Shown piece by piece: positions 2,083 through 59,120 of a stretch of DNA of 59,120 bases. The stretch covers positions 1 through 59,120 of the IMG/VR virus record IMGVR_UViG_3300023180_000059; one strand, 5' to 3'. The DNA is from a virus. Taxonomy: Duplodnaviria; Caudoviricetes. Made by a program: the position numbers and the translations under genes. Position 1 is the stretch's first letter; every line of letters starts with the position of its first letter. Below the pieces are notes generated by a model. It ran no database searches. It was not told where the DNA came from and worked only from the letters and a program-made list of their open reading frames with translations.

Positions 2083-2084
2083 CG

Positions 2085-2267: not shown

Positions 2268-2297
2268 TTACCTCAACATTTTTTTAACCTTTTAAAC

Positions 2298-2305: not shown

Positions 2306-2307
2306 TA

Positions 2308-2415: not shown

Positions 2416-2466
2416 TGTGGTGTGCAACTGAACCCATAGAATGCCCGTGTGGAAAGTGTAAGTGTG

Positions 2467-2637: not shown

Positions 2638-2642
2638 AAGAG

Positions 2643-2672
2643 ACCGCTCCAATAGGGGCGGTTTTATTTTTT
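2643..2672 (+). terminator. Rho-independent terminator
   Basis: accgctcc-aata-ggggcggt plus T tract. Confidence 0.75.
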
Positions 2673-2679
2673 ATCTTTG
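2672..2679 (+). promoter_or_regulatory. Bacteroidetes -7 promoter TATCTTTG (probably leaderless transcript)
   Basis: 4 nt between the element and ATG 2684. Confidence 0.65.
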
Positions 2680-2683
2680 TTTC

Positions 2684-3076: not shown

Positions 3077-3110
3077 AAAAACATTATTTTTGTAACACAA
3101 ACATTATATC

Positions 3111-3875: not shown

Positions 3876-3880
3876 TAACT

Positions 3881-4540: not shown

Positions 4541-4550
4541 TAGTGAAAAT

Positions 4551-4581
4551 AAAAAGAGGGGCTAACGCCCCTCTTCTTTTT
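4551..4581. terminator. Bidirectional terminator
   Basis: A tract, aagaggggc-taac-gcccctctt, T tract, between convergent genes. Confidence 0.8.
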
Positions 4582-4632
4582 GATACCGATCAGTCAAACC
4601 AAAACCTATAAATCGGTATCGACCCTAAACAA

Positions 4633-4989
4633 TTATTTATTTGCCTTAACCCCTTTCTTCATGATGTCTCCTACAGTCTGTAAGACACCATCATCGTTTT
4701 CAATTACGGCTAGAATCACAACCCAATCATCGTAATCAAATTCTCTTGCTAGTAAGACCCGTTCCCACAAAGCAGGGGCTTGATACCAACTTTCACAAGA
4801 CTCAAATAGATTGTTTTGTAAAGTAAATAAATCATCAGCATTGGACACATCGTATATGTACCAACCCTCTTTGTAAAAGGTGGTTTCGATGTTTGTAGCA
4901 TCAAATACTTCTTGGATTCTCGATGGGACTTCTTGTCCCTTTGCTGTTACTCCTAGGAAAATTAGGACAGCCAACATCATTTTCTTCAT
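4633..4989 (-). CDS. Secreted/periplasmic hypothetical protein (moron-like)
   Basis: Start re-assigned to MKKMMLAVLIFLGVTAKG|Q; lone minus-strand gene in the late arm. Confidence 0.7.
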   Translation of the reverse strand: MKKMMLAVLIFLGVTAKGQEVPSRIQEVFDATNIETTFYKEGWYIYDVSNADDLFTLQNNLFESCESWYQAPALWERVLLAREFDYDDWVVILAVIENDDGVLQTVGDIMKKGVKANK

Positions 4990-19400: not shown

Positions 19401-22400
19401 AGAAGAACGATGTACTCGGTGTTGATGTAGAGGCTATCGAACAAGCATATAGAGAATGGGGCAAGTCTGTAGGATTAAGCGAGTCTGCTATTGAGGCTAT
19501 GGTGCAAGAAGAGGTGGTCATGAAAGTACTTGCGAGTTACACCACAAACCTCAACCAAATTGATGCTTCGTTGATAGGTAAGATCAGACGAATCATTAAC
19601 AAAGCACTTACCGCAGTAGGTTTCAAGAAACTTACAATCACCGATGATGTTTCTCTTGTTAAACTAGCGGAGACATTCGCTCTTGCTACTCGCCAAGGAA
19701 AGGCTATTAACCAGCGTGTAAGCCAACCTTATAGAACACAGCCTGTAAGCGATGGTGGTCGTGCTAGTATCCTAATGTTAGCGGATGCCCTAGGTCTAGA
19801 TGCAAAGACTATACAACAATTTAAAGGTGGCTATGGAGAGGCATTTAGTTTCAAGGCAGCGGAATTTTTAAAGAGAAGAGAAGTAGGATACGCTACCCAA
19901 GAAGAAGCTCTTGAGGCACTTGGTGAAATAGAAGATGTAAACCTTTTACCTGAAATTGCGAAGGAAGATTTAGAACTCGGAATGAGTGCTATGGCGACCG
20001 AGGTATTCGATGTCGCTAGTCAATCGCTAGAAGATGGTAAGACATACAATATTGAGACATATATTGATTATAGTCAATATAAGTTAGAGACCGATCTTTC
20101 TATAAAAGGCAAGAGACTAGATGGCAGTCCTTCTTCTAGAAACCTTCGACTACCGATAGTTACAGGTGGATTCTTTATGCCTCGTACAGCAGAAGAATAT
20201 GTTGAGGCACAGGAAAAGGGAACTATAAATCGATTCTTCCCTAAAGATACATTTGATAAATTAAACCCTGGGGAACAACTACCTCCAAGATTCTTCGCAT
20301 TAATGCCTGATCGTGGTACTACAGTTAGAAGGTCTACCAATACTGGTGGTGAGGGTCGCCTCGGTGGTACAGATGGAGTAAGAAAGGATCAGTTCCTTGC
20401 CGAAGAAGTATTAGGTTTAAGTTCCGAAATTCATAAAGAGATACTGCTCCAAGGTATCATGCAGTCGCCGATGATTCTTATCGGAGATGACAGTGTGCTT
20501 TTAGGAATCTATGAGAACGGAGACTTATTAGGTCATGTGTACGCTGAAGATATTGAAGCATATTTAGACGGAGACTCAAGTTTACTTCTTGATGAAGATG
20601 TGGTATTTGAAGACATAGTAATGTCCTCTGCTCCGTTGAAAGGTATGCCTATGGAGGCACTTGATATTTACATGAGTGGCGTTGAAGCAATTGAAAACCG
20701 CAACCAAGCGGAGTACCAACAGTTGCTTGTCCAAATGCATCCAGATAATATCGGATGGATACCGGGACTAGGAACATATAACGGCAACATATATAGTGCG
20801 GTGTATGAAGATGCTGTTAGAATTTACCAAGCGGTTTTAGAAAAAGAAAGTAATAATGGAAACATTGATGGTGCTTTAAAAGAGGCTTCAAAGATTGCGA
20901 AACAATCTATTCGAAAATCCTTAATGCCTCTAGGCGACATCTTATATGCTCGTGAGTTATATAAAGATTCATATGGTGTAGAACCTCCACAGGTTGAGTC
21001 TATTGAGGAACTTGCGGGTTTCTTGGATACTAAACGCATGAGTGAGTTTGATGAGGGCATGATAAAAATCATGTTTGATTTGATTGACCTCGAAGCTCCT
21101 ATGATTAGGCTTGATAACATTGCGTTCTTGGACAACAATGAAAACAGTGAAAGCGTTGAACCTTTGCTAGAAGACTTCCAATATAGTGAACGAGTTCGCC
21201 CTCAAAGAAGGACTTCTTTGGTTAACATTGATAGTAGAGAATACAAGGCGTACACTAGAAACTTTGGATCAGATGTTACTTGGTATTTGGAAGGTGGGCG
21301 TGTTCCTCAAACAATGAATGAACTACTTGCGGATGCAGACAACATTGCTGATCCACTAGAGCGCATCAACTACTTGTCGTACATGACGGAACATATTGTC
21401 AACCGAGCCGGAGATATTGATGCCGAGATAGACAACAAACTGTTCCAACAAAAAGTAAAAGAGAAGATCGATTCTTCTCGTGAGGAATTGTTGAGCGGTC
21501 GTGCTGCTTTGAACCAAGAGTCTATCAACAAACTAAAAGAGGGTATTGTCGCTGGTAAGCGTGTAGGTCAAGGCATTGCTTCTAGTCGTGGTGTATCTAC
21601 GGATGTATCCGACATGTCGGCTTCTTCTGTTCGTTCAATACCTGCGGCTAACAGAAATGTTAGACCTATATATGTAGAACATGCTGTAGCGTTGACTAGT
21701 ACAGAACGCCATCCAATAATGGCGGACCAGGAAGTTCCTCCGTTCATCGACAACATGCCTAAAGAGGATTACTCTAGAGAGGGTATGCTAACACTTTATC
21801 ATGGTGGTTATGGTCTAGAGAATATCTCTAACGACCGACCTCTATACATATCTCCAGAGGAGAGTGAAGCGGCAGACTACCAACGCCTTCAAGATGACCA
21901 AGAAAAATCTGATCCTAAACTTGTAAACCCTGTCTACATAGAAGAGTCAAGGGTAGCATCTCAAGACCAAGCACTAGAGGTAGCACGAAGATTGTTCCCA
22001 GAAAAGATGGCGCAGTATGATGCGACTGGAGATGCTATGTTCTTTATGTTGATAGATATAGAAGGGATGGAGGCGAGAGGCTTTTCTTCAGAGGATATTC
22101 CATTTATACTAAATCAGAAAGAGCGTAAGAAATACTTTACGGCTCTTGAGTCGGCAGGTTTTGATGCGGTATCTTTTATGGATCAGCAGGCAGACCAGAC
22201 TAGAAGTCCTAGGGTTGTGGAGAATATGGTAGTTCTAAATCCACAAACGGCTATGGATAATGGCTCTATGAAACTGCAAAGTCAAAAGGAATGGGCGGAT
22301 GGAATCTATGCTACATTTAAAGAGCGTGTGGTTTCTAATCTTCTATACTTGCATGACCTTGCTGATCCAGAGGTTCGTGAGTACATGCGTAGATGGTACG

Positions 22401-25400
22401 ATGGTGCAAACAAGATTGCGAAGGACATGTCTACCAAATATGGTATTAGCGTAGAACAAGCCTCTGGTATTCTTGCTGCCCTATCGCCGGGTGCGGATTG
22501 GTTTATCAATATCCAAAACGCATACAACATCCTAGAGGTTCTTCACAATAACCAAGATTCTACATTTGATGAAACCATGTACAACATGGCTATCGGAAGA
22601 AAACTAGAATCATATAGACAAACTGGTCCAAATAGTTCTTACTACAAGAAGAAGTTCAAGGGTAAAAAGATGACCCCTTCTAAACTCTTAACGAAAGATC
22701 GAGCGGGATTTGATTCTTTCCAGGAGTCTATGGATATTCTTCGTGGCAGAACACTTTCTAGTATGGATGCTTTGGAGAAAGCCAAGTTCATTCGCTACTA
22801 TAGAGAAGTGTATATGCCTTCTACTGTACAAGTGTACAGCCCTGTTGGTGATGACCTAGGAACATACACTACCAAGAGTGGTAAGCCTAGACAAGTTGTG
22901 ACCCAAAGTTTTTCTAACATGGCGAAAGCCGTAACGATGTTTGAGAATAACGACATCGGTATGATTAGCGAACTGCTCGGAGGTAGCCATAAGATTAGAC
23001 ACTTCTACAATAACATCGCAAACCCTGATGCAACGGATGGTGATGTTACTATGGATACTCATGCGGTTGCTGCGGCGGAGCTCATGCCTTATGGTCAATC
23101 AAGCCCAGCCGTAAACGAGAACTTTGGTGGGGCAGGCATCATGTCTTCTTCGGTCAATGGTTTGTCAGGAAACTATTGGGCGTATCTTGATGCATATGTG
23201 GAGGCAGCAAACCAAAGAGGCATCCTTCCTCGTGAGATGCAGTCTATCACTTGGGAAGTGATTCGATTAATGATGCCTTCAACTCTTCGTGATAATACTA
23301 GTAGATCAGATATAGCAGAGATTTATAAAGGTTATGAAGGAGAACCAATTGAAGATGTACAAAATGAAATTAAAAAATACTTCGATGAAAAAGACACCGA
23401 CACAGAAACCCCAAGAGGAACAAATATTAAGCACCCTAGTTGGTACAGACCTTCTAGTAGCGAAGGAGATATTACGCAAGGGGAAACCTCTAACGAAGGA
23501 GACTTGGCTGGAGGAGATTTATCTAGCGGAACAAGTACCGAAGCAGATACACCCGGAAGTCCTAGCAACGATACCGGAAGGGCTGCACTAAAAATGCGTC
23601 AAGCCACGACACAGTTCGTGGACATGCTTAAGGGTGGTGTGCCTCAAGAGGTGGCGTTTGCCGAGACCATCTTGAAGGCGGATAGAAAAGCCAAGAAGGG
23701 TAAACTCAAGCCAACGGATGAGGGATCAGATTTCTTCTACCAACCACAAAGCATCAATGCTACTAGAGAGCAGTTGATGGGGATGAGTACTGCGGAGATT
23801 GTATCAATGCTAGATACCAATGTCTTGCGTGACATTAGCACACAGGCTGGTAAGATAGACTTCTCTACCGATGGTAACATCCTAGTACTTGCTCAAATAG
23901 AATACCTTGAGCGTTTGAGAAAAGCAGGCGACATGAACGGATACCAAACCGAACTCGCTAAACTTACTCAAATGGGAACAACCTTTGGACAACTGCTCCG
24001 ACAATTTGGGGAAATCAAAGGTCGTACTGTAGAGGGCATGGTATCCCTCATTGCAAAAGAATACGAGAGAAAGGGTACGCCTCTAAAAACAGATGCGCTA
24101 GAAACACTTACTCAAGTCGTAGACGAATACATGCAGGCTAAAGATGGATTTGACCAAGCGGTTGATGAGGTCTTCGATACTGATCCGAGTAACTTCGACC
24201 AAATGGATAAGAAGGTTCAAGAGGCTCAAGAGAGATTAGAGAAAGCCATCGCAGGTATTAACGACTTCCAAAAGTTCAATGCGCCTACATGGGGTTCACT
24301 CCTATCTACCATTATGCAGGGTAACCTTCTTACCCTACGCTCTATTACAACGAACGTCATTGCGAACGCCATCACGCTTCCAATGAGATTAGGTGAGCAG
24401 TTGATTGCTGCGCCGATAGAGTTTATGTTGTCAGGAAATAAGCGTGAGATCAGACCATCTTTCGGTGCTATGATTTACGGAGCGCAACGATCTTTCCATG
24501 GTCTTAAAGAAGCGTACAAATCTATCAAGAGCGGTGTTGCCCCTGGTGATTTTGAGTACACGGCGGGATATCAACTACGACCACTAGTTGCTCTTGCTAC
24601 TGTATTTGGTAAGGGAAAAGAAGGACTACCTCAAGAGTTCCATAGTCAAGCAGACTTCATGAACTACAAGGCAAAGAAACTTGTTGAGGGCATCTTTGGT
24701 CTAACGGCAGCATCAAACTTTAAACTACTTGTACTTGGTGACCGACCATTCTATCGTGGTATGGAGGGATATGAGTTGTACCAACAAGGTAGAAAGTTAG
24801 GGTTGTCAGGAGAATCTCTTGCTCAATTCCTTAAGTACCCTACCGAGGAACACTTGAGACTTGCTCGTGAAAAAGGATTGAAGCTCACCTTCCAAGAGAA
24901 TGATTCTACCCTACTGTTTGGTATGGTGAATACCCAACAAGCACAAAACTTCTTTAGCGGTGCAGGTGGTAAAATGATGGAGAGTGATAAACTAATGACA
25001 AGAATGTTTGGTAATGCGGTTCGCTTTATCGTGAAGTCAAATGTTCCTTTCGTTAAGACTCCATTCAATATCCTATCACAGTCATTGGAGTTGACCATGT
25101 TCCCGATCACATTCTTACAAGCATTCTCTAGAGGAATGTCGGCTCGTGATAGATCAGAGAAACTAGCAACCGCCCTCATGGGATACATGTTGTTCTTACT
25201 TGCTCGTAGATTATATGACCAAGGTGCTGCTAGTGGAGCGGTAGATAAGATGAGTCCGAAGTCTCGTAGCGTAGCCTATGAGGTAGAACCTCCGTTCACT
25301 ATCAATGTATCGGCACTAGGTCGTGAGACAGGAGAGCCTTTCCAACCATCTGATCGTAGAGTAGGTTTCGCTAAACTAGGTTTGCCGGGTGCGATACTCG

Positions 25401-26296
25401 CAGCGTATATTGAGGCGTTCAAGATTATCGATAGAAAGCCTAACTTCTCTAGCGAAGAAGAATTGAAAGAGTTTGGTATCGAAGAGCAAAGTCCAGTGAG
25501 TAGTTTCCTTGAGAAGTCAATGGGTATTACCCTAGGTTCTTTGGGTGCATTGTTGGATCAGTCCTTCTTGACCGGTCTAGAAAATGTAACGAAAGTGTTA
25601 CAAAATACGGAGGATGTAAATGTAGTAACCAAGTACTTCGAGCAGTTGTCTCGTGCTATGGTATCCGTTCCTCTTCCTAACTTGTTCACATCATTCTATA
25701 GAGCGGAGCGTGAGTTCTTGCCAGACTATCGTGACAACACTATCGACAAGAGGTTTAAGAATGTATTGTATGACAGAACCTTTGGTACATTTGGTAGAGG
25801 TGATAACCCTGCTCCTATCCGTATCAATGTGTGGGGTGAGAAGATTAATCAAACTCCTCCAGGAACAAACCCTGTCTTCTATGAATTCCTTGACCCTACA
25901 GGCACAAGACTAGCAACGGATGATCCACTTAAGGTTGAACTATACTCTCTATATCGTAGAACAAACGATGAGAATGCACTACCTTCTATACCTAGTATCA
26001 TATTGAACAAGGAACTATTTAGAAACAAGGGATCAGAAAGATATGAGTTCACTACATCCGAAGTAAATGAACTGCTCATGCTACTAGGTCAAGAAAGAAC
26101 TAAAAGTTTACGAGCGGTTGTTGAGTCTGAAGGCTGGGGTAGAATGTCAGATGAATCTCAAATCGCTGTGGTTAAAAAGATAAATAGTCGCTTTAGTAAG
26201 GGCTACCAAAAATTAGATGATGGTAGTTTAAAAGTGTACAAGTGGTATCGCCGTAGACAAGAAATGATAATGCAAAAGAAGAATGAAGCAAATTAA
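16442..26296 (+). CDS. 3284-aa large polyvalent internal virion protein (zincin-like peptidase, ART-like and HhH glycosylase-like domains)
   Basis: REEFAH ~19310; TLYHGG ~21790; RRWY...AALSP...DTHAV...EMQSITW ~22390-23255. Confidence 0.75.
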   Translation: MNEEILEYLRGQFGDDYFNIDTQEALTDYENTVLRRGIMAGYDLGELRPALEELRVELVKKKESQQEVFQSSQDLYQQAVEETGFSKSEDSPYAGGLGYDYSGTRTLEKLDGSAAEQKVANDELDALAKDVENAQYDQAYQTFKYLGYSDEKASESVGNLHNMAIEQGQPIGQVMNNLYLMDFRTGFEQYKDDLNVENADRYRTIVDFGAASQEATNVAYWLDKGVDIDGASEELGISIKSHDVFHEDYLTPGEDYFSFWLIDEESAPGEKTGVYNDLKRFYNRAAISKMQADMLDPVMPLSEVDFERLAYYQKLMRENHQVEWDTDNAFLEGVDIVLSSVVSPIFESAAAMWAGAATNPLTYMGALTGAGTFVGFGAEGLALEYSSKVLEVFSELGYDTANPAQLAKAFENPEVMKEARNRGLAKGIPIAIVDAISAGTASAVYKNIIKQGYRRFTTYALAEGAEGLMGAGGEALGQLVETGEIYDVKGIALEFLGQGIQTAPIKAYTAIKNKDMSQAERDYLRFAVLNQDAHELTTAASSMNFNEVQAINKKIKEQRQAARKAKSKEARATHRQNARQLQQQKYETLNRNLETLQNLPENKRKKVVELTERMNDHAIELKRFKKGDPGRTAVIEEIGKIYGQINDIVKGRKPRETPMGSEVAPNVNPTPVDGVTPVPGAPTVEEASTPTITELDGQQAVVKLPSGITRGLVTIDEGGKVTIEDAKGNVTELGNVQDIGEQSLEEAGFGSFLSELNEDGSFSIRGKQYTAPRGKKSVNLNENGEVVSVTLKDSKGRNRTFRGEVAQEIAYLFSQPQSKQEDTRSIEEIIVETSEEANGGPAVETVEEVQGQDETVTPSDETPPIPQQEKPELPKPALSSPVRTISPRNGISERVASIVNGLVSALSGNIGKDVRMVFWNNTEDLNNALGQNGLEAFYDFRTNTIHLTIDATDAVIREEFAHAGFGGIMSDDKVRGRLYQEVRDLAKKNDVLGVDVEAIEQAYREWGKSVGLSESAIEAMVQEEVVMKVLASYTTNLNQIDASLIGKIRRIINKALTAVGFKKLTITDDVSLVKLAETFALATRQGKAINQRVSQPYRTQPVSDGGRASILMLADALGLDAKTIQQFKGGYGEAFSFKAAEFLKRREVGYATQEEALEALGEIEDVNLLPEIAKEDLELGMSAMATEVFDVASQSLEDGKTYNIETYIDYSQYKLETDLSIKGKRLDGSPSSRNLRLPIVTGGFFMPRTAEEYVEAQEKGTINRFFPKDTFDKLNPGEQLPPRFFALMPDRGTTVRRSTNTGGEGRLGGTDGVRKDQFLAEEVLGLSSEIHKEILLQGIMQSPMILIGDDSVLLGIYENGDLLGHVYAEDIEAYLDGDSSLLLDEDVVFEDIVMSSAPLKGMPMEALDIYMSGVEAIENRNQAEYQQLLVQMHPDNIGWIPGLGTYNGNIYSAVYEDAVRIYQAVLEKESNNGNIDGALKEASKIAKQSIRKSLMPLGDILYARELYKDSYGVEPPQVESIEELAGFLDTKRMSEFDEGMIKIMFDLIDLEAPMIRLDNIAFLDNNENSESVEPLLEDFQYSERVRPQRRTSLVNIDSREYKAYTRNFGSDVTWYLEGGRVPQTMNELLADADNIADPLERINYLSYMTEHIVNRAGDIDAEIDNKLFQQKVKEKIDSSREELLSGRAALNQESINKLKEGIVAGKRVGQGIASSRGVSTDVSDMSASSVRSIPAANRNVRPIYVEHAVALTSTERHPIMADQEVPPFIDNMPKEDYSREGMLTLYHGGYGLENISNDRPLYISPEESEAADYQRLQDDQEKSDPKLVNPVYIEESRVASQDQALEVARRLFPEKMAQYDATGDAMFFMLIDIEGMEARGFSSEDIPFILNQKERKKYFTALESAGFDAVSFMDQQADQTRSPRVVENMVVLNPQTAMDNGSMKLQSQKEWADGIYATFKERVVSNLLYLHDLADPEVREYMRRWYDGANKIAKDMSTKYGISVEQASGILAALSPGADWFINIQNAYNILEVLHNNQDSTFDETMYNMAIGRKLESYRQTGPNSSYYKKKFKGKKMTPSKLLTKDRAGFDSFQESMDILRGRTLSSMDALEKAKFIRYYREVYMPSTVQVYSPVGDDLGTYTTKSGKPRQVVTQSFSNMAKAVTMFENNDIGMISELLGGSHKIRHFYNNIANPDATDGDVTMDTHAVAAAELMPYGQSSPAVNENFGGAGIMSSSVNGLSGNYWAYLDAYVEAANQRGILPREMQSITWEVIRLMMPSTLRDNTSRSDIAEIYKGYEGEPIEDVQNEIKKYFDEKDTDTETPRGTNIKHPSWYRPSSSEGDITQGETSNEGDLAGGDLSSGTSTEADTPGSPSNDTGRAALKMRQATTQFVDMLKGGVPQEVAFAETILKADRKAKKGKLKPTDEGSDFFYQPQSINATREQLMGMSTAEIVSMLDTNVLRDISTQAGKIDFSTDGNILVLAQIEYLERLRKAGDMNGYQTELAKLTQMGTTFGQLLRQFGEIKGRTVEGMVSLIAKEYERKGTPLKTDALETLTQVVDEYMQAKDGFDQAVDEVFDTDPSNFDQMDKKVQEAQERLEKAIAGINDFQKFNAPTWGSLLSTIMQGNLLTLRSITTNVIANAITLPMRLGEQLIAAPIEFMLSGNKREIRPSFGAMIYGAQRSFHGLKEAYKSIKSGVAPGDFEYTAGYQLRPLVALATVFGKGKEGLPQEFHSQADFMNYKAKKLVEGIFGLTAASNFKLLVLGDRPFYRGMEGYELYQQGRKLGLSGESLAQFLKYPTEEHLRLAREKGLKLTFQENDSTLLFGMVNTQQAQNFFSGAGGKMMESDKLMTRMFGNAVRFIVKSNVPFVKTPFNILSQSLELTMFPITFLQAFSRGMSARDRSEKLATALMGYMLFLLARRLYDQGAASGAVDKMSPKSRSVAYEVEPPFTINVSALGRETGEPFQPSDRRVGFAKLGLPGAILAAYIEAFKIIDRKPNFSSEEELKEFGIEEQSPVSSFLEKSMGITLGSLGALLDQSFLTGLENVTKVLQNTEDVNVVTKYFEQLSRAMVSVPLPNLFTSFYRAEREFLPDYRDNTIDKRFKNVLYDRTFGTFGRGDNPAPIRINVWGEKINQTPPGTNPVFYEFLDPTGTRLATDDPLKVELYSLYRRTNDENALPSIPSIILNKELFRNKGSERYEFTTSEVNELLMLLGQERTKSLRAVVESEGWGRMSDESQIAVVKKINSRFSKGYQKLDDGSLKVYKWYRRRQEMIMQKKNEAN

Positions 26297-32816: not shown

Positions 32817-33584
32817 TTAAACTTCAAATTCTGCGAAGAAAGTTTCGGTCGGCGCATCGCTATCGAGATAACTCATAATGCGGTCAATCGCCATCGTATA
32901 CTTCTTCTTTCCTCTCTCTATTGTTTCAGGCGTAGCCCGAACCAACGCTGGAAGATATGGATAAGTTTTCTCTTGTGCAACCCAAAAGTAATCATTGCCT
33001 GGGAAGACCGAGGTGTAGATATACGCTTGGATATCATAGCCAAAAGAAAAGACATCTCTACCAAAGGATTTCACTGATCTACAACTCTTGCTATCGGTAA
33101 TAAACCCTTCGCCCTTACAGTCTAGGAATCCACGAACAGGTATCTCATCGATAAAAGAATTGAATTCTACTTGGACTTCACCGGTGAGGTACGAGTCTTT
33201 CAACCCCGTCTCATCGAGTCTATTTATCATATCGATAGCCACCTGGAAATCCTCTTCGCTCACAATCTCAAGCCCCCGCTTTTTTGCTTCATCACTCATG
33301 TCTTGTTTCCATTTGCGATACTTTGCCGTAGCTCGTGGGGACTTGCCCCCAATCTCTTGAATGATATCGTAGTCATCAAAAGTAACAAACCGCTCATCGT
33401 ATTTCTCTGGTTCAAACAAAAGACAATCGTACACTGATCCAAAGGACAGTGCTTGAGATTCTTTCTTGAGTTGCCCCGCCATGTACATCTCCCATAGGCG
33501 CATGTCTTGGAGGGCATACTTAATAGAGGAGTAGGAAAGATATTCCTTCCCTACTTTATCTACTAGTTGATTAGCGAACTTCAT
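32817..33584 (-). CDS. RecE/exonuclease VIII-like PD-(D/E)XK nuclease (DUF3799-like)
   Basis: LSYSSIK, FGS, RGFLD, DSKS, GYDIQAYIY, WVAQEK. Confidence 0.8.
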   Translation of the reverse strand: MKFANQLVDKVGKEYLSYSSIKYALQDMRLWEMYMAGQLKKESQALSFGSVYDCLLFEPEKYDERFVTFDDYDIIQEIGGKSPRATAKYRKWKQDMSDEAKKRGLEIVSEEDFQVAIDMINRLDETGLKDSYLTGEVQVEFNSFIDEIPVRGFLDCKGEGFITDSKSCRSVKSFGRDVFSFGYDIQAYIYTSVFPGNDYFWVAQEKTYPYLPALVRATPETIERGKKKYTMAIDRIMSYLDSDAPTETFFAEFEV

Positions 33585-34114
33585 TACCCTACAAATTTTT
33601 GTAAGGCTTCTTTTTGCTTCTCGGTAAACGAGTCGCCATACTTACCTATGATTCGATCGAAAGCTCCGCTTTTGTCTTTAGACTTTTTGATGTATTCAAC
33701 GGCATCCTTAAACACATTCTTCTTTGATGTCCCGCTCTCACTAGTTGGGGCACTCTCTTGTTTAGCAATAGCCATTGACACCTCATTGCTTGAGGCAATA
33801 GATGACTCAATACCAATGCCTAGGTTAGCCAATGCACGACCCCATGCCGAGGTCTCACAGTTTTCTACATAAGAAGTCTTATTGATATGGCTACTAGTTC
33901 TATCCTCTTGGGCGAATCCAGTAGCAACGACTGATCCTTTGTCGTTCGTGATAACCGCTCTGATCACACAAGAATCATTGTCCAAGTGAATCATTTCGGT
34001 TTCAAGAGACCACCCCTTGTATTCAGGTGCGGTGCGAAAATAAAGGATACGCTGATTTACCTCAACATATTCCTTACCACGGATGTTCGTGGTTTTGAAT
34101 TGGTGTTTTACCAT
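33584..34114 (-). CDS. Putative single-strand annealing protein
   Basis: GKEYVEVNQRI...ENCETSAWGRAL; lies beside the exonuclease and SSB. Confidence 0.7.
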   Translation of the reverse strand: MVKHQFKTTNIRGKEYVEVNQRILYFRTAPEYKGWSLETEMIHLDNDSCVIRAVITNDKGSVVATGFAQEDRTSSHINKTSYVENCETSAWGRALANLGIGIESSIASSNEVSMAIAKQESAPTSESGTSKKNVFKDAVEYIKKSKDKSGAFDRIIGKYGDSFTEKQKEALQKFVG

Positions 34115-36497: not shown

Positions 36498-36527
36498 AAG
36501 CCTCACCAATCGGTGGGGCTTTTTCTT
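36498..36527 (+). terminator. Rho-independent terminator
   Basis: aagcctcacc-aatc-ggtggggctt plus T tract. Confidence 0.75.
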
Positions 36528-36528
36528 T

Positions 36529-36550
36529 CTCTCTCTCTCTCTCTCTCTCT
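36529..36550. repeat. (CT)11 microsatellite
   Basis: Read directly from the sequence. Confidence 0.9.
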
Positions 36551-42475: not shown

Positions 42476-42625
42476 ATGACATACAAGATAACGACAGGGA
42501 TGTGTAGTTGTGGGTCTTTAGACTTCAAGCATACCTGCCCATATAGAGAAAAACACGAGCAAGATATAGAGACCTTGTGCGATTGCTGCGAGGCTTGTAT
42601 TGAGGCTTGTGCAAATGAATGTTAA
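42476..42625 (+). CDS. 49-aa Cys-rich (9 Cys) probable metal-binding protein
   Basis: MTYKITTGMCSCGSLDFKHTCPYREKHEQDIETLCDCCEACIEACANEC*. Confidence 0.6.
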   Translation: MTYKITTGMCSCGSLDFKHTCPYREKHEQDIETLCDCCEACIEACANEC

Positions 42626-42643
42626 CCAATTAAATTTAATCCT

Positions 42644-42967
42644 ATGTCAGTGAAGACAAAGTACCAAGTATTTCAAGATGCAGTAAAACTGCTCGTACTT
42701 TACCAGGCATCGCTCGATGCTATGGATGATTTCAAAGGGACTACCCTTTATAAGCATGATGTTAAGAAGCTCATGAACAACCTCGAAAAGAAGATCGAGT
42801 TCATGATTAGAAAACCATTGGATAAAGTTGACTCTGATCCAGAGACGAGTGAATTATTTTCTGCTCTTCAAAAAAGAGTAGAGATGATTAACACTTTAAC
42901 GACAGAGGAATTGGCTCAATTAAAGTGGGTAATAGAAGAACACAGGGAAGAGGAGACTAATTCGTGA
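42644..42967 (+). CDS. Hypothetical protein
   Basis: 107-aa helical ORF. Confidence 0.7.
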   Translation: MSVKTKYQVFQDAVKLLVLYQASLDAMDDFKGTTLYKHDVKKLMNNLEKKIEFMIRKPLDKVDSDPETSELFSALQKRVEMINTLTTEELAQLKWVIEEHREEETNS

Positions 42968-42982
42968 TTCACGAATCGCAAA

Positions 42983-43316
42983 GTAAGGGTATAACCTCAC
43001 AAGATTTGATTTCGGTAAGGCTATAACCTTACAATGATGCAGAACGATAGGGTTTTGTGTCTTTAATAGAACACTATGTCAAGTAAACTGCACAAGATGC
43101 TTGACACCTTTAACACCAAAGAGAAATGACAACAGAAAGAATTAAAGAAATACAAAACAAGACTGCTTACCCCGAAAGTGCAAGTGTACAACAAGCCTTA
43201 TTACAAGTTTGGAATGAAGTAGCGCAGAAATACGAAACCTTTAACACCAAAGAGAAATGAAAAAAGTAAGGGCATAACCTTACAACGCAGTGTACAAAGT
43301 AAGGGTATAGTGTGAC
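42983..43316. repeat. Four GTAAGG-N6-CCTTAC-like palindromes in two pairs
   Basis: Copies at 42983, 43015, 43266 and 43299. Confidence 0.8.
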
Positions 43317-43480
43317 AAAGTGTAAAATGAAAAGCACTCAAAGTGTAAAATAAGCCGATTGAATGGTGCTTATTTACACCATTAAGGTATGTTTAAGCAT
43401 ATAAAGATGGGCTTATCCATCAAATTATAAGCGCACACATATAAAAGTAGGCGCAAACCTTTAACACCAAAGAGAGATGA
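43106..43480 (+). repeat. Three copies of 24-nt ACCTTTAACACCAAAGAGARATGA
   Basis: 43106-43129, 43237-43260 and 43457-43480 (1 mismatch). Confidence 0.9.
43126..43260 (+). CDS. 44-aa micro-protein bounded by the 24-nt repeats
   Basis: MTTERIKEIQNKTAYPESASVQQALLQVWNEVAQKYETFNTKEK*. Confidence 0.65.
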   Translation: MTTERIKEIQNKTAYPESASVQQALLQVWNEVAQKYETFNTKEK

Positions 43481-43575
43481 TAGACTTTAAATGGATGGTA
43501 ATAATACTGACTTATCTCTTGGCAGTATTTTTTATTTACTTAACGGGAAAAGGAGATGAAAAGATCGATAATTGA
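43477..43575 (+). CDS. 32-aa single-TM micro-protein
   Basis: MIDFKWMVIILTYLLAVFFIYLTGKGDEKIDN*; starts at the ATGA of the repeat. Confidence 0.5.
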   Translation: MIDFKWMVIILTYLLAVFFIYLTGKGDEKIDN

Positions 43576-43613
43576 ATTGTGTAATCGAGACCTTGAAGAA
43601 AACGGAATAGAAA

Positions 43614-43715
43614 ATGATTAGCGTAGTACTTATATCGATAATGTCTTTTTATATTGTAAGGAGAGAATATCTACAAACAAAAGAATTAAAGAAGAAACTC
43701 AAGCGATATGAGTAG
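43614..43715 (+). CDS. 33-aa single-TM micro-protein
   Basis: MISVVLISIMSFYIVRREYLQTKELKKKLKRYE*. Confidence 0.45.
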   Translation: MISVVLISIMSFYIVRREYLQTKELKKKLKRYE

Positions 43716-44454
43716 TTTCTGGGATGAACAAAGAAAAAAGATAGGAGCAGTTTCCTTAAACTCATTCCGTTTAGACAACACTATTCGGCAGATACCTTTA
43801 TTTGAGGTGAAGGAGTATAAGGAGTATACTGATCACGCTCGTAATTTTAAAAGAAAAGATTACGATTGGTACTATGCTATGACCCAAGGTAAAAAGGGAT
43901 ATGGTAATAGCCGTAATGGATTTGGTTCAAACTCTACACTTTTCTTTGAAGATTCTGTTTTGGTAGACGGACATCGGTTTTCAAAACATGCTCTTAAGAG
44001 TTTTCATCATTACAATACCTATGAATTAAACACTCACAAAAGAATCAATGATTTCGATAGAATCATTGAGTTGGGTGGTGGTGCCGGGGATTTTGCTCGT
44101 CTTGTTTTAGAACTGGGATATACGGGCGATTATATTATCTATGACCTTCCAGAAATTTCTCGTGTTCAAAGATTTAATCTAGAAGGTTTTAATGTAAGAT
44201 GCACATCGAATTACTCGCTTCCAAGAAACCGAGTGGAAAACACATTGTTTGTTTCTACTTGGGCATTGTCCGAGTGTCCCCTAGATGTTAGGCAACAATT
44301 CTTGCAGAATAACCCGGCACCTAACCATCTGATCATATACCAAAAAAAAATATTTGGAGTAGACAACGAAGAGTATTTTAAAAGTTGGGAAGGTAAAAGA
44401 ATAGACATCCCTTGGATTCCTTGGGATGGAGGTAGTAAATATTTAATTAAATAA
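43708..44454 (+). CDS. Class I SAM-dependent methyltransferase, putative sugar O-methyltransferase
   Basis: IIELGGGAGDFAR, YIIYDLPE, LFVSTWALSE. Confidence 0.7.
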   Translation: MSSFWDEQRKKIGAVSLNSFRLDNTIRQIPLFEVKEYKEYTDHARNFKRKDYDWYYAMTQGKKGYGNSRNGFGSNSTLFFEDSVLVDGHRFSKHALKSFHHYNTYELNTHKRINDFDRIIELGGGAGDFARLVLELGYTGDYIIYDLPEISRVQRFNLEGFNVRCTSNYSLPRNRVENTLFVSTWALSECPLDVRQQFLQNNPAPNHLIIYQKKIFGVDNEEYFKSWEGKRIDIPWIPWDGGSKYLIK

Positions 44455-44463: not shown

Positions 44464-44658
44464 ATGAGTTATATTACAGACCCGATCGCAAAAGAAGTAA
44501 TAGACTGTGTGTTGCGCCGTAACGCAAAGATGTTTACTGAACTCGGTCAAGACAGTACGCCAGAGGAATACGCAAGTGCTAGGCAATTAGAAAAAGAGCG
44601 TTTGCTTCGTATCCGAAAATTTGATCCCGATAAAATTGATAGAATGTTGATTGAGTAA
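44464..44658 (+). CDS. Small hypothetical protein upstream of terminase
   Basis: Its stop overlaps the terminase start. Confidence 0.65.
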   Translation: MSYITDPIAKEVIDCVLRRNAKMFTELGQDSTPEEYASARQLEKERLLRIRKFDPDKIDRMLIE

Positions 44659-46774
44659 TGGCTGGAATAAAAGAGGTTAAAGGATATGACGACTCCGTAA
44701 TTAATATCTGTGCAAACGACAGTGAGGGTGATATCATAGAACTTTCCGGGCTATATATACAACTTCCTAAAGTTCCCGATATGGGAACTATTTTGTTTTC
44801 CGAACTACCTAAAGAGGATCAGTGTTGGAGGAGGATACCCATGCCCCAAGAGATGTCTCGTATACGCTCCATGGATGAGTGGTTGGAAATGCCTAAAGAG
44901 TTTAGGAATAGATACCTTCCCTACATCCAACAAGAATTTGAGCGTAGGAATAATGGGGTTTGGTTTATGAATAATGGTGTACCCACCTATCTAACAGGTA
45001 GACACTACATGATGCTCCAATGGTCAAAGCTCGATATTGGATATCCATATTACTTGGAATTTCAACAAAGACTTTTTGTTCATCAAAAAGCATGTGAGGT
45101 AGACCCCCGATCACTAGGTCAAGTATATACCAAGTGTCGCCGTAGTGGGTATACTAATATGAGTGCATGTACGCTAGTAGATGAGGGAACACAGGTAAAG
45201 GAAAAATTACTTGGACTACAATCCAAGACGGGTAAGGATGCTCAAGAAAATATCTTCATGAAGAAGATTGTTTCAATATTTAAATCCTACCCATTCTTTT
45301 TCAAGCCTATTCAAGATGGTACGACCAACCCTCGTATGGAGCTTGCGTTCCGAGAACCCGCAAAACGAATCACCAAGAAGAATAAAACTGCTCAACAAGG
45401 CGAAGCCCTTAACACCATAATCAATTGGAAGAACACAACGAATAACGCTTACGATGGTGAGAAACTACACATGCTTTATTTAGATGAGGCAGGTAAATGG
45501 GAGAAGCCTACCGACATCCGTGAGGCATGGCGTATCCAAAGAACATGTCTTATTGTAGGTCGTAGGGTGATTGGGAAATGCTTGATGGGTTCTACTGTGA
45601 ATCCAATGAATAAGGGAGGAAAAGAATATAAAGAACTCTGGCAAGACAGTAGTCCCTACCAACGAAATAAAAACGGAAGGACTCGATCGGGTCTATATAG
45701 AATATTCATTCCTTCCTATGAAGCACTCGAAGGGTTTTTTGATATATACGGAAATCCAGTAATTGACGACCCGGACCAACCTATCGAAGGTATTGACGGA
45801 GAGTTGATCGATATGGGAGCAAAGACATTTTTAAAAAACGAAAGAGACTCTTTAAAGAATGACCATTCGGAATTAAACGAGGTTATTCGACAGTTCCCTT
45901 TTACGAGGACGAAGCCTTCCGTGATAGTATACAGGGGTCTCTTTTTAATCTTACGAAGATATATGAGCAGATAAGTTATAACGACAACCTTTTTCCTAAT
46001 CCAATTGTAAGAGGTAACTTTGTTTGGAAAGACGGAGTACAAGACACGAAGGTTGTCTTTAACCCAGATATTAATGGGCGGTTTCATATATCTTGGCTTC
46101 CCCCAGCCGATATGCGAAACAACATGGTTATAGAGCGAGGTATCAAGAAACCTGGAAATGCTCATATCGGTGTTGGCGGGGTCGATAGTTACGACCTCGA
46201 TGCTACGCTTGATGGTAGAGGTTCTAAAGGTGCTATGCATCTTTATAATAAATTCAACCTTGCCTGCCCTTCTAATATGTTTGTGGTCGAATATGCATCA
46301 AGACCTCCACTAGCAAAAATATTTTACGAGGATGTATTAATGTGTTCGGTGTTCTATGGTTACCCACTGCTCATAGAAAATAACAAGTATGGTATCGTAA
46401 GATATTTTGAGCAACGAGGATATGATGGTTACATCATGGATAGACCTCAACATCTAACCTCAACTTCTGCCCGGGTAAATGTAAAGACCAAGGGTATCCC
46501 ATCTAACTCGGCGGATGTTATCCAAGCTCATGCTCAAGCCGTGGAAGAATACATACACAACTATGTAGGGACAAATGATAATGACGGGAGTATTGGTAAC
46601 ATGTATTTTTCTCGAACCCTAGAAGATTGGATCGGGTTTAAGATTGATAATCGTACAAAATACGATTTAACAATTTCGAGTGGTCTTGCTTTATTGGGGG
46701 CACAAAAAGTCAAGCAAGAAAAAAAGCAGTCGGACTTTAGCGAGAAAAAGTTTTTTAGAAGGTACAAGCTCTAG
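44658..46774 (+). CDS. terL: Terminase large subunit, interrupted by a -1 frameshift at ~45902
   Basis: KCRRSGYT Walker A and LYLDEAGK Walker B in the first frame; GGVDSYD, IENNK and KYDLTISSGLAL nuclease motifs in the second frame, which is open from before 45905. Confidence 0.85.
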
Positions 46775-51577: not shown

Positions 51578-54562
51578 ATGGCTCTCAAAATAAATTCTAC
51601 TGTAGACCTAACTGGCAAACTACAAGTTGCTGGGTCGGATGTTATAAACGCTTCTGGCGAATGGACTGGCTCTAGTTCAGGCTTAAAAGGAGAGCCTGGA
51701 GACAAAGGACAAAAAGGAGCAGGGGGTGCTAACGGAAGTGATGGATCTGACGGGAGCAAAGGTCAAAAAGGTGAGGTTGGAGACAAGGGTCAACCCGGTG
51801 CTGATGGAAGTAACGGCTCGGCAGGTACGGACGGAAGCAAAGGTCAAAAAGGGCAAAAGGGCGAAGTCGGTGCTGACGGGAGTAATGGATCAGATGGTGT
51901 TGACGGCTCTAAAGGTCAGAAGGGGGAGAAAGGACAAAAGGGTGAAGTCGGTACTGACGGAAGCGATGGTATTGATGGAGATAAAGGACAAAAGGGCGAT
52001 AAAGGTCAAAAGGGTGAAGCCGGATCTAATGGTTCGGACGGAACGGATGGAAGCAAAGGAGACAAGGGGGATCGTGGTAGTGCAGGTTCTGATGGGAGCA
52101 ACGGATCAGACGGAGCAAAAGGAGAAAAGGGTCAGAAGGGGCAGACCGGGAACCAAGGTCCAGCAGGTAACGATGGAAACTTTGGAGGTGCTTCCTTCAA
52201 CTACAATTTTAGTGGGGAAACTGAATTAGTAGACCCTGGAGATAGTAATATTCGTTTTAACAACACAACACTTTCTTCGGCAACAAAATTATTATTAGAC
52301 GACACGGATGCGAGCTCTACCGACATCCAATCATATTTAAGAACTATTGACGACAGCACTTCGACTGTTAAAGGTCATGTTCGTGTTTCAAAAGAATTTG
52401 ATAGTACAGCATACGCACTATACCAAATAACTGCTCTAGGCGAAAAAACAGGATATTTTGAGGTTACTGTTTCACATGCTTCTTCTTCTGCGTCTAGTCC
52501 GTTTGGGGACAGTGATTCTTTAATTGTAACATTTGCTCGTACTGGAGACCAAGGAGATAAGGGTCAAAAAGGTGAAGCGGGAACAGACGGCACTGACGGG
52601 AGCAAAGGACAGAAGGGTGAAGCGGGTGCTAATGGTTCGGACGGCTCTAACGGAAGTGACGGAGATAAAGGTCAGAAAGGACAAAAGGGCGAAGCCGGAG
52701 TAGACGGAAGCAACGGATCAGACGGAGCGGACGGCAGTAAAGGAGAGAAAGGTCAGAAAGGCGAAGCCGGCGCAGACGGAAGTAACGGAAGCGACGGGGA
52801 CAAAGGACAAAAAGGTCAAAAGGGACAAACAGGTAGCAACGGAACGGCTGCTACTATTGCTATTGGAGAAGTTAGCACGGGCACTGAAGGAAGTGAAGCA
52901 AGTGTAAGTAATAGCGGTACATCTACAGCAGCCACATTTGACTTTTCAATTCCTGTTGGAGCAACAGGTAGTAAGGGACAAAAAGGCGAAGCCGGTGCAA
53001 ATGGAAGCGATGGAACGGACGGCGACAAGGGGCAAAAGGGTGCTGCTGGTAGTAACGGAAGTGACGGAAGTGACGGAAGCAAAGGCGAAAAGGGAGAGAA
53101 AGGTCAAAAAGGTCAGACAGGAACGGCTGGTACCGATGGCTCGGCTGGTACCGATGGGAGCAAGGGAGACAAGGGTCAGAAGGGTGAAGCCGGCGCAGAT
53201 GGTAGCAATGGTGCTAACGGATCAGATGGGGTAGATGGTAGCAAAGGGCAGAAGGGTCAAAAGGGACAAACCGGTACCGCTGCTACTATTGCTGTCGGAG
53301 AGGTTAGTGCTGGTGCAGAAGGCACAGAGCCGAGTGTGACAAACACAGGGACTTCTAGTGCTGCAACATTTAACTTCACTATTCCTGTTGGAGCAACTGG
53401 TAGTAAAGGTCAGAAAGGAGAGGCTGGTTCTAATGGTTCAGATGGAACGGACGGCGACAAGGGGCAGAAAGGCGAAGCCGGGTCTAATGGTTCAGATGGT
53501 ACTGATGGTAGCAAGGGGCAGAAAGGCGAAGCCGGGTCTAATGGTTCAGATGGAACGGATGGTTCTAAAGGGCAAAAAGGAGAGGCTGGTTCAAACGGGT
53601 CAGATGGTAGTGATGGTAGCAAAGGTCAAAAAGGTGAGGCTGGAGCCAATGGATCAGATGGTAGTGACGGAACAGATGGATCGAAAGGGCAGAAAGGTGA
53701 ACCCGGCGCAGATGGTGGTGCCGGACCCGAAGGACCAGCCGGTGGTGACGGGAGTAAAGGTCAGAAGGGTGAACCTGGATCAAATGGTAGTGCCGGATCC
53801 GATGGTACTGATGGGGATAAAGGACAAAAAGGAGAACCTGGTGCAGACGGCGGTGCCGGACCCGAAGGACCAGCCGGGGGCGATGGGTCTAAAGGTCAAA
53901 AGGGAGAACCTGGTAGCGATGGGTCTAATGGTTCAGATGGTACAGACGGAAGCAAGGGACAAAAGGGTGAACCTGGTGCCGATGGTGGTGCTGGACCCGA
54001 AGGACCAGCCGGGGGCGATGGAACGGACGGCGACAAGGGGCAAAAGGGCGAACCTGGAGCCAATGGATCAGACGGCTCGGCTGGTAGTGATGGTGCGGAT
54101 GGTGACAAGGGGCAAAAGGGTGAACCTGGTGCAGATGGTTCAAATGGCTCGGACGGGGCAAAAGGAGAACCTGGTGGATTTACAACCAACTCAAACGCTC
54201 AAGTAAGTAGCCTTGGTGTAGGTACTGCGGCTTCAGGAACGAGTGGACACATTCGTGCTACTAACGATATTGTTGCATACTACTCTTCCGATGAGCGGTT
54301 GAAGGCTAATGTAAAACCCATTGAGTCTGCTCTAGATAAGGTACGCTCTATAAGTGGTGTTGAATTTGATTGGATTGAAAATAGCGACCTACACCCTAAT
54401 ACCGGACATGATGTAGGTGTTATAGCTCAACAAATTATGAAGGTGCTTCCAGAGGTGGTTACACAAAGAGATAATGGTTACTATGCCGTGCGCTATGACA
54501 AAGTAATAGCACTGCTCATCCAAGCAATTAAAGAGTTAGACGAGGCTTGTCCTAAAAAGTAA
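51578..54562 (+). CDS. Collagen-like tail fibre with C-terminal peptidase S74 chaperone
   Basis: Long Gly-X-Y blocks (GSKGQKGEAG...); YSSDERLKANV...GVIAQ chaperone. Confidence 0.9.
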   Translation: MALKINSTVDLTGKLQVAGSDVINASGEWTGSSSGLKGEPGDKGQKGAGGANGSDGSDGSKGQKGEVGDKGQPGADGSNGSAGTDGSKGQKGQKGEVGADGSNGSDGVDGSKGQKGEKGQKGEVGTDGSDGIDGDKGQKGDKGQKGEAGSNGSDGTDGSKGDKGDRGSAGSDGSNGSDGAKGEKGQKGQTGNQGPAGNDGNFGGASFNYNFSGETELVDPGDSNIRFNNTTLSSATKLLLDDTDASSTDIQSYLRTIDDSTSTVKGHVRVSKEFDSTAYALYQITALGEKTGYFEVTVSHASSSASSPFGDSDSLIVTFARTGDQGDKGQKGEAGTDGTDGSKGQKGEAGANGSDGSNGSDGDKGQKGQKGEAGVDGSNGSDGADGSKGEKGQKGEAGADGSNGSDGDKGQKGQKGQTGSNGTAATIAIGEVSTGTEGSEASVSNSGTSTAATFDFSIPVGATGSKGQKGEAGANGSDGTDGDKGQKGAAGSNGSDGSDGSKGEKGEKGQKGQTGTAGTDGSAGTDGSKGDKGQKGEAGADGSNGANGSDGVDGSKGQKGQKGQTGTAATIAVGEVSAGAEGTEPSVTNTGTSSAATFNFTIPVGATGSKGQKGEAGSNGSDGTDGDKGQKGEAGSNGSDGTDGSKGQKGEAGSNGSDGTDGSKGQKGEAGSNGSDGSDGSKGQKGEAGANGSDGSDGTDGSKGQKGEPGADGGAGPEGPAGGDGSKGQKGEPGSNGSAGSDGTDGDKGQKGEPGADGGAGPEGPAGGDGSKGQKGEPGSDGSNGSDGTDGSKGQKGEPGADGGAGPEGPAGGDGTDGDKGQKGEPGANGSDGSAGSDGADGDKGQKGEPGADGSNGSDGAKGEPGGFTTNSNAQVSSLGVGTAASGTSGHIRATNDIVAYYSSDERLKANVKPIESALDKVRSISGVEFDWIENSDLHPNTGHDVGVIAQQIMKVLPEVVTQRDNGYYAVRYDKVIALLIQAIKELDEACPKK

Positions 54563-58988: not shown

Positions 58989-59114
58989 AATATTACCGAG
59001 GGAATAGAGACTACATTCCCTGAACTATCCGATTACGACACCCCTTCATGGGTGAAAGAATCCTACCCACAAAAATCTTTTGATGCTAGTACAATAGACC
59101 TTGAGAAGCAAAAG
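58989..59114. repeat. Terminal overlap identical to 1-126
   Basis: Direct comparison of both ends. Confidence 0.95.
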
Positions 59115-59120
59115 ATTTTT

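Follow-up and report, generated by a model that had tools for sequence, protein, structure and literature searches.

A short junction element of 25-26 nucleotides (nt) recurs, letter-identical, in well over a hundred uncultured marine and salt-marsh phages, where it stands before small genes of many different kinds. It is described here from IMG/VR virus record IMGVR_UViG_3300023180_000059 (Duplodnaviria; Caudoviricetes), whose 59,120 nt are referred to as the window and which contains three copies of the element, recognised by a common 24-mer. The element includes the ATG of the gene that follows it, together with two stop codons which genes upstream use; its flanks are shuffled from locus to locus, and homology between loci ends at it in clear excess. 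We think it probable, while holding the view with some reserve, that it is a portable junction which provides a start of translation independent of Shine-Dalgarno (SD) pairing, couples the translation of neighbouring genes and, through its identity from genome to genome, also serves as a recombination foothold for the exchange of gene cassettes.

The 24-mer, ACCTTTAACACCAAAGAGARATGA, lies at 43106-43129, 43237-43260 and 43457-43480 of the window, always on the plus strand. Allowing up to three mismatches reveals no additional site in the window, and the chance expectation, from 100 dinucleotide-preserving shuffles of the window, is 0 matches. A repeat occurring three times, which encodes the TFNTKEK* end of one unit and provides the ATGA start of the next, had been pointed out in the original prediction along with the units that it joins, and all three copies and all of these units are indeed present. 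The locus is organised as follows, with protein lengths in amino acids (aa) and ORF standing for open reading frame.

42980..43034, plus strand: two copies of a palindrome-bearing repeat, AAGTAAGGGYATAACCTYACAA
43076..43129, plus strand: 17-aa micro-ORF MSSKLHKMLDTFNTKEK*, with its ATG at 43076 and the TGA of copy 1 as its stop
43104..43129, plus strand: junction element copy 1, 26 nt including two additional 5′ bases; contains the TGA stop of the 17-aa micro-ORF and the ATG of the 44-aa ORF
43126..43260, plus strand: 44-aa cassette gene, with its ATG from copy 1 and its TGA from copy 2
43235..43260, plus strand: junction element copy 2, containing the TGA stop of the 44-aa ORF
43261..43456, plus strand: non-coding, regulatory-looking block of 196 nt with palindromes and direct repeats and no plus-strand ORF of 20 aa or more
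43263-43285 and 43296-43318, plus strand: palindromic repeats of the block
43316-43328 and 43339-43351, plus strand: CAAAGTGTAAAAT, twice, in the block
43362-43383, plus strand: hairpin in the block
43428-43435 and 43448-43455, plus strand: TAAGCGCA/TAGGCGCA in the block
43455..43480, plus strand: junction element copy 3 (G variant), following non-coding DNA; contains the ATG of the 32-aa hydrophobic micro-protein
43477..43575, plus strand: 32-aa hydrophobic micro-protein MIDFKWMVIILTYLLAVFFIYLTGKGDEKIDN, with its ATG from copy 3

Each of these units also occurs elsewhere. The 17-aa micro-ORF, which may be a leader cistron, recurs in loci L036, L061 and L017 at 94% aa identity. The 44-aa cassette has different neighbours in L014 and L034, and over its first 31 codons (93 nt) its DNA shares 89% identity with the beginning of the 93-aa gp002 of Cellulophaga phage phi13:2, at a locus from which the element is absent; beyond codon 31 it runs into the junction tail, so that it has the appearance of a truncated gene to which the element is fused. 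Every module of the non-coding block directly abuts the element in other contigs, and in 9 loci a relative of MIDFKWMVIILTYLLAVFFIYLTGKGDEKIDN follows the element, whose upstream contexts there are of 4 different kinds. The palindrome-bearing repeat is itself a recurrent feature: its 23-nt form (GTAAGGnnATAACCTTAC core) is present in four copies (42980-43034 and 43263-43318) as pairs 32-33 nt apart, which look like operator sites and which, in other contigs, also lie directly against the junction element. No known RNA family or tRNA was found in the window.

The anatomy of the element was defined from matches listed from scans of viral contigs, to which the statistics on 141, 131 and 149 sites given below all refer. 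In consensus form it reads (W)A-ACCTTTAACACCAAAGAGAR-ATG-A. Conservation over the 141 unique sites sets in sharply at the two extra 5′ bases (A at position -1 of the 24-mer in 94%, A or T at position -2 likewise in 94%) and ends after ATGA. A scan that uses only the 5′ 17-mer as its anchor finds AGARATGA next at 112 of 141 sites; the ATG is in register at 126 of 141 sites and is followed by A at 118 of these 126. Two stop codons close two of the three frames: a TGA that overlaps with the ATG closes one, and a TAA 12 nt before the ATG closes the frame of the ATG itself. The third has no stop, and the element contains no second ATG. In 128 degenerate copies, variation at positions -16 to +3 does not exceed 16%, with the exception of C-12 and C-9, which mostly change to A (C-12 in 47 of the 128). 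The adenines at -14, -13, -11, -8, -7, -4, -2 and -1 vary in only 2-5%, and the 5′ AACCT in 23-37%. The element is unstructured according to folding with RNA parameters (-0.5 kcal/mol, z about -0.4), lacks dyad symmetry, and has a predicted pairing of 0.36 at the start region versus 0.52 in the flanks.

The exact 24-mer is present at at least 123 loci (at least 146 occurrences) in IMG/VR and is thus not peculiar to this genome. The 80 loci listed by name come from 68 different dataset numbers, and scans with only the 5′ 17-mer or only the 3′ 16-mer gave at least 125 and at least 122 loci. In the multi-copy loci listed, all copies within a contig have one orientation, which is that of the genes. 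Among 185,579 species genomes only 8 matching stretches were found, on 7 contigs, all of them in metagenome-assembled genomes (MAGs) and none in an isolate genome, and the idea that the element is a host signal was rejected on these grounds. It is also absent from 50,697 phage records covering cultured phages, where a 31-nt query gave only three weak partial matches. Literature searches, including literal motif strings and the promoters of Cellulophaga phages and extending to the papers but not to the supplements of those cited, returned no description of it.

The carriers represent several phage lineages rather than one: their records span 25-212 kb, and of 20 larger carrier records 3 encode a homolog of the window portal protein, as do 2 of the 5 whose completeness is rated at 90% or more. 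The window, a whole viral genome of about 59 kb, carries a direct terminal repeat of 131 nt (1-131 and 58989-59119, 98% identity) and is therefore complete or circularly assembled. Its host is probably a member of the Bacteroidota, because of four features: the late genes of the window phage have upstream boxes of the TAnnTTTG type and lack an SD sequence, the 44-aa gene shares identity with phage phi13:2, the MAG matches include Flavobacteriaceae, Flavobacteriales and Saprospiraceae, and the region is found in runs from salt-marsh and seawater metagenomes. The carriers in general probably infect Bacteroidota as well.

On the upstream side, at 131 sites examined for ORFs of at least 30 aa, 53 such ORFs stop at the TGA of the element, 15 stop at the TAA and 6 are in the open frame; the remaining 57 sites (about 44%) have no upstream ORF of this length. 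In these cases recurring promoter- or operator-like modules lie directly against the element, namely TAGGCGCA direct repeats, CAAAGTGTAAAAT, GTAAGG..CCTTAC palindromes and a GGGGTCTTTTTT run, all of which except the GGGGTCTTTTTT run also occur in the non-coding block of the window. In two loci the element abuts the 3′ end of a tRNA gene, overlapping its last three bases (ACC): L004 (2928-3003, Arg-tct) and L084 (62-303, an Arg/Leu/Met cluster). On the downstream side the ORFs are small (median 52 aa, range 6-217; 129 of 149 complete) and rarely resemble anything described: 2 of 81 distinct proteins of at least 40 aa pass the Pfam cut-off, one MazG-like and one with HNH and NUMOD4 domains (L072), and 3 of 15 downstream proteins have a PHROG match. 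The longest array seen is that of L066, an IMG/VR contig of 63.6 kb, where 15 consecutive small genes of 32-140 aa (about 970-4830, minus strand) are each preceded by a variant of the element of the form TTTAAAACC...GAGAGATGA, with TTTAAAACCAAAGAGAGATGA nearly uniform within the array. The three copies of the window are therefore a small instance of a larger phenomenon. A profile of all ORF starts near elements (646 ORFs) was uninformative, as it was diluted by false ORFs.

The sequences brought together by the element differ from one locus to the next. When flanks are clustered at 75% identity or more over 60 nt, the 141 unique sites fall into 99 upstream and 102 downstream clusters, and 133 combinations are seen at 136 sites, so that unrelated small ORFs do flank the 24-mer in varying combinations. 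The check proposed with the original prediction thus turned out in its favour, and its central idea, a standard junction between exchangeable cassettes, is upheld. Almost all multi-member clusters are promiscuous, 24 of 25 downstream clusters being joined to two or more unrelated upstream sequences and 23 of 24 upstream clusters to two or more unrelated downstream sequences; letter-identical copies of one cassette (MNYIKIAKWF..) follow four unrelated contexts. An all-against-all comparison places 379 of 1,084 informative homology ends in the element or within 5 nt of it, against 42 expected (maximum 60 in 200 randomisations). This corresponds to 1.62 ends per site at elements versus 0.12 at ordinary ORF starts of the same loci, a roughly 13-fold difference. 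Among 324 shared segments with two informative ends, 31 extend exactly from element to element (median 217 nt) and 176 have one end at an element. IMG/VR contigs themselves end within 150 nt of an element in 25 of 78 loci versus 2.3 expected.

Metagenomic runs give a similar picture. Contigs identical to the 44-aa cassette reach depths of 311, 83.5 and 109 in three DNA runs, versus 9.5, 3.8 and 2.4 for the backbone, contig depths not being copy numbers, and contigs from the same samples stop at the edges of the element with many different loose ends. We take this to show that the 44-aa cassette and the element are also carried by other genomes that are more abundant in these samples. An RNA-library run, X11, has contigs on 42979-43480 only and none on 42600-42975 or 43493-44000, a pattern which DNA carry-over could also produce. 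All four runs were available as Logan contigs, in which events at the level of reads are not visible.

A standard junction between small genes recalls integrons, which consist of attC sites, folding as hairpins, and the IntI integrase. Both form co-oriented arrays of mostly promoterless, small, unrelated genes behind a standard junction, with a content that differs between relatives. The differences are that no integrase was found in the window scan, that the element has no attC-like hairpin, that the junction overlaps coding ends and a start, and that the carriers are lytic-type. Comparison of 54 window ORFs with PHROGs gave no match to an integrase or recombinase family, the scan being limited to the window, and nothing supports an integron-like, site-specific mechanism; this part of the original prediction did not hold. 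More generally, the element could be the recognition site of a dedicated recombinase or nuclease by which cassettes are excised and inserted as units. The copies are direct repeats in one orientation, 31 shared segments extend exactly from element to element, and one cassette gene encodes the homing-type HNH and NUMOD4 endonuclease mentioned above, but this nuclease is one of 81 cassette proteins, upstream joins occur at variable points of the neighbouring modules, and the absence of dyad symmetry and hairpin as well as of a recombinase gene among the scanned ORFs leaves this explanation very unlikely.

A candidate source of recombination activity is encoded by the phage itself, in a pair of adjacent genes.

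32817..33584, minus strand: PD-(D/E)XK exonuclease (Pfam DUF3799; PHROG exonuclease VIII)
33584..34114, minus strand: 176-aa protein, encoded directly upstream of the exonuclease gene with a 1-nt overlap

The second protein has no Pfam or PDB match by sequence and belongs only to a PHROG of unknown function, and its atlas clusters carry PF27148 Slr1353_N. Its AlphaFold2 model (mean pLDDT 74.7) gave Mgm101, Sak and RAD52 as top Foldseek matches (E 2.6e-3 to 3e-2), and VIA-align gave Z scores of 7.7-8.9 to RAD52 and to Sak of phage 80alpha over 97-101 residues, which are borderline values; double-stranded RNA-binding domains come near them, with Z scores of up to 7.6. The borderline fold match, supported by the gene order, suggests that it is probably a Rad52/Sak-like single-strand annealing protein. 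The proposal that an exonuclease and an annealing protein mediate the exchange thus stands as regards the presence of the exonuclease gene, while its second partner is assigned by borderline model scores. We infer that shuffling proceeds by homologous recombination through the phage's own enzymes. Because its 25 nt are nearly letter-perfect across lineages, the element also offers a shared homology at which cassettes could be exchanged, duplicated, truncated or lost, probably with the help of the exonuclease and Rad52-like gene pair, usually located 1-3 kb away.

What the element does when no exchange takes place is suggested by its position. With the ATG included, stops in two frames, a bias towards the ATGA overlap and no structure, a function in starting and coupling translation is the one that fits best. 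The element would end the preceding gene, by the TGA overlapping the ATG or the TAA 12 nt upstream, offer an unstructured adenine-rich leader without an SD sequence and provide the ATG of the next small accessory gene, so that any gene behind it would receive a standard start context. Ribosomes might re-initiate there after translating an upstream gene or, where a promoter block or a tRNA gene precedes, initiate de novo. That the element promotes or couples translation is suggested by geometry alone, and the translational coupling that was initially proposed would apply to part of the sites, given the roughly 44% that have no upstream ORF.

Pairing with the ribosome in the classical way was rejected as a mode of action, the 16S 3′ end of a Flavobacteriales MAG (..GGAACACCTCCTTT) being able to pair only with the AAAG of the element. 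Bacteroidia ribosomes are reported to ignore SD sites. Initiation in Flavobacterium johnsoniae is favoured by A at 0, -3, -6, -12 and -13 and by low structure, with no further AUG close by (Baez et al. 2019, PMC6847099). Of these adenines, those at 0, -6 and -13 are present in the element, which has others at -11 and -14, and the conservation gradient of the element appears consistent, in part, with these start determinants. Its layout in the window also has an engineered counterpart. The bicistronic design of Mutalik et al. (2013) reportedly uses a leader cistron whose stop overlaps the start of the gene, which makes that start independent of context, with an SD sequence inside the leader; the 17-aa micro-ORF with copy 1 has exactly this stop/start arrangement, the differences being that no SD sequence is present here and that so many natural sites have no upstream ORF.

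A signal of this size standing repeatedly before genes might instead be a promoter. In such a scheme a phage-specific promoter of about the size of the T7 type would give each small gene a near-leaderless transcript, and the length of 24-26 nt, the asymmetry, the repetition before genes, the ability to overlap the end of an upstream gene and the frequent position behind promoter- or operator-like modules would all agree with it. The ATG is part of the element, however, at a fixed distance of zero, and 15 consecutive copies about 200 nt apart would be an odd layout for promoters. Neither a TAnnTTTG box, as present before the late genes of this phage, nor sigma-70-like hexamers were seen in the element on inspection, and the lineages have no structural genes in common and give no hint of a common polymerase. 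We regard a promoter as highly improbable. For the crAss-like phage phi14:2 a preprint reports that its early promoters have no motif in common, so there is no early-promoter comparison to be made with the element.

The constraint on the element appears to act on nucleic acid and not on the peptide. The commonest variants change the encoded residues (AAC to AAA, that is N to K, and AAA to AGA, that is K to R), and exact copies of the 5′ 9-mer stand at 37 of 75 sites preceded by non-coding DNA and at 36 of 59 preceded by coding DNA. Variation of the TFNTKEK tail, together with preservation of the 9-mer in the absence of an upstream ORF, argues that the tail itself is not what is conserved. The tail does have a probable origin. 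A family of small proteins of 70-110 aa, with members in L001, L007, L015, L019, L044, L066, L108 and others, begins with MKTP(M/I)QEL, carries an EKEKE motif in its middle part and has ..Y(Y/F)NETFNTK.. as its native end; neither Pfam nor PHROG gave a match to it. Its tail varies at the protein level (YYNETFNTKQK, YYNETFNTNEK, YFEETFNTKENG) and is therefore native to the family, from whose C-terminal coding end (..YYNETFNTKEK*) the 5′ half of the element was probably derived. With members on the upstream side at 19 and on the downstream side at 12 of 149 sites, the family is also the commonest single partner of the element, yet 122 of the 149 sites have a member on neither side, and it is therefore a likely source of the 5′ half and not an explanation of its spread.

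The same figures bear on the idea that the element is a passive and functionless footprint, the 3′ end and overlapping start of a tandemly duplicated MKTP...YYNETFNTKEK family spread by duplication and illegitimate recombination. The frequency of the family among the partners and its native tail would be accounted for in this way, but not the many sites without it, nor the element remaining letter-perfect where the family genes have strongly diverged, being kept equally well behind promoter-like blocks and tRNA genes, and holding its ATG in register at most sites. We consider a mere footprint quite unlikely.

Conservation of this kind could also reflect recognition. The element might be an operator on messenger RNA (mRNA) for a shared trans-acting factor, which could repress or activate translation or be an endoribonuclease that targets start regions, so that cassette genes are switched together while shuffling is ordinary mosaicism; RegA and RegB of phage T4 provide models for such factors. 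About 20 consecutive positions including the ATG and the next A are nearly invariant. This exceeds the needs known for a start region without SD from the F. johnsoniae work (PMC6847099). Host genomes lack the element, apart from the 8 matches on MAG contigs, only a subset of the genes of each phage carries it, and variants tend to be uniform within an array, as in L066. On the other hand no candidate factor was identified, the carriers span several lineages of 27-212 kb, so that the gene of a common factor would have to travel with the arrays, identity at the A/G position between array neighbours is at background level (16 of 29), and an operator would not by itself explain near-identical cassettes in unrelated contexts. 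An operator as the whole explanation therefore seems unlikely to us, if less so than a footprint.

Several observations weigh against the start and exchange junction that we favour. As regards translation, most genes of the window phage start without the element, which is not needed for translation in general and is therefore a special device of small-gene arrays. The match to the F. johnsoniae determinants is only partial, since G and C occupy -3 and -12 in place of the preferred A. In the window itself, copy 2 starts no real gene: its ATG opens a frame of only 6 codons (ATG AAA AAA GTA AGG GCA TAA), so that this start is unused by a real gene there.

As regards exchange, 117 of the 324 shared segments end at no element, and loci were de-duplicated by exact 60-nt flanks only, so that kin populations may inflate some of the counts. 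Simple crossing-over inside the element predicts that the A/G position, 4 nt from the 3′ edge, should be linked to the downstream cassette, but it matches in 32 of 50 pairs sharing a downstream flank and in 35 of 56 sharing an upstream flank, with a background of 0.53; a clear linkage to one flank was thus not obtained. The closest relative, L027 (about 93% nt identity in the flanking genes), lacks 43003-43285 of the window (283 nt), and this indel is bounded by the 22-23-nt palindromic repeat (42981-43002 and 43264-43285) and not by the element. Repeats of at least two classes are therefore responsible for rearrangements here, and the L027 comparison revealed no recombination event at the 24-mer in the window's own lineage; cassette shuffling at the junction, as first suggested, agrees with the concentration of breakpoints but could not be traced in this lineage. 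Joints between copies (such as 43123 to 43461, and 43352 back to 43234) have sides of only 20-33 letters and are unassignable to the window genome. Finally, a gene for the DUF3799 exonuclease, mostly within 1-3 kb of the element, occurs in 13 of 20 carrier records and in all 5 whose completeness is rated at 90% or more, but its frequency was counted in carriers only, so that the co-occurrence and its role as a recombination partner are suggestive.

Two types of phage repeat come close to the element. The SAS/ESAS repeats (start-associated sequences) of cluster K mycobacteriophages are 13 bp long, have the SD core AGGAG, lie 3-7 bp from the start codon and are confined to a single cluster (Pope et al. 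2011, PMC3203893). Like the element, they are short, asymmetric repeats in one orientation near the starts of non-structural genes of different families, sometimes hold the upstream stop, strongly prefer ATG, are absent from hosts and are suspected of acting in translation initiation. The element differs in its length of 25-26 nt, in the absence of SD pairing, in including the ATG and two stops, in its presence in several lineages and in being a breakpoint hotspot; the SAS consensus, GGGATAGGAGCCC, is dissimilar in sequence and restricted to cluster K.

The PeSL (promoter-early stem-loop) elements of T4-type phages consist of a sigma-70-like promoter and a terminator hairpin and act in transcription (Arbiol et al. 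2010, PMC2839356; Comeau et al. 2014, PMC4122927). They too are short conserved elements between small genes of unknown function in hyperplastic regions, where changes between phages are bounded by them, and in both systems shuffling is ascribed to homologous recombination between copies. Indels and replacements bounded by the element are seen here in the same way (the 379 of 1,084 ends given above), with the exception of the L027 indel at another repeat. The element differs from PeSL in lacking a hairpin or a host-type promoter box and in sitting at a stop/start overlap, and PeSL mini-circles are reported to have been demonstrated physically, while the element is known here from contig sequences. 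The palindromic repeats at 42980-43034 and 43263-43318, which bound the L027 indel, are more PeSL-like than the element. The element belongs to neither type and combines features of both. Taken together with SAS and PeSL, it suggests that standard junction sequences are perhaps general in phage accessory-gene arrays.

A bolder extension of the favoured reading is that the element is a common socket for a cassette pool shared across lineages of marine and salt-marsh Bacteroidota phages, kept letter-perfect by a trans-acting factor that could be a translation, RNA-binding or recombination protein. We consider this doubtful as it stands, though its consequences would be considerable: any small gene bearing the element could be plugged into any carrier and expressed at once without an SD sequence, and the phages would form an integron-like gene-sharing network without an integrase. 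In more immediate terms, the element is a searchable sequence handle on the trade of small genes among otherwise unrelated Bacteroidota phages, as a search with it pulls out hypervariable arrays of genes of unknown function, and it explains the breaks of metagenomic contigs at these positions. Start-site choice and operon coupling in Bacteroidia are still open questions, for which the element represents a natural portable 25-nt module with stops in two frames; it is also a possible expression part for Bacteroidota.

The remainder of the window genome shows a few additional features. The large terminase gene lies in two frames (44658-45974, then to 46774), with the shift near 45905. The relative L049 has one continuous frame through ..VIRQFPFTEDEAFRDS.., and the window gene is therefore interrupted by a 1-nt frameshift, which may be an error of the assembly or else a shift that is real or programmed; an intron was rejected on the same evidence. 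The structural arm contains a giant ORF of 3284 aa (16442-26296, plus strand), whose only PHROG matches are two families of unknown function at residues of about 1960-2190. Its size is reminiscent of the virion-packaged RNA polymerases of N4-like and crAss-like phages, a likeness of size only. A 994-aa tail-fibre gene (51578-54562, plus strand) is mostly composed of collagen-like Gly-X-Y and contains 38 DNA copies of a 9-nt-periodic unit. In the leftward arm, an intergenic CT dinucleotide run (CTCTCT...) is present at 36519-36550.

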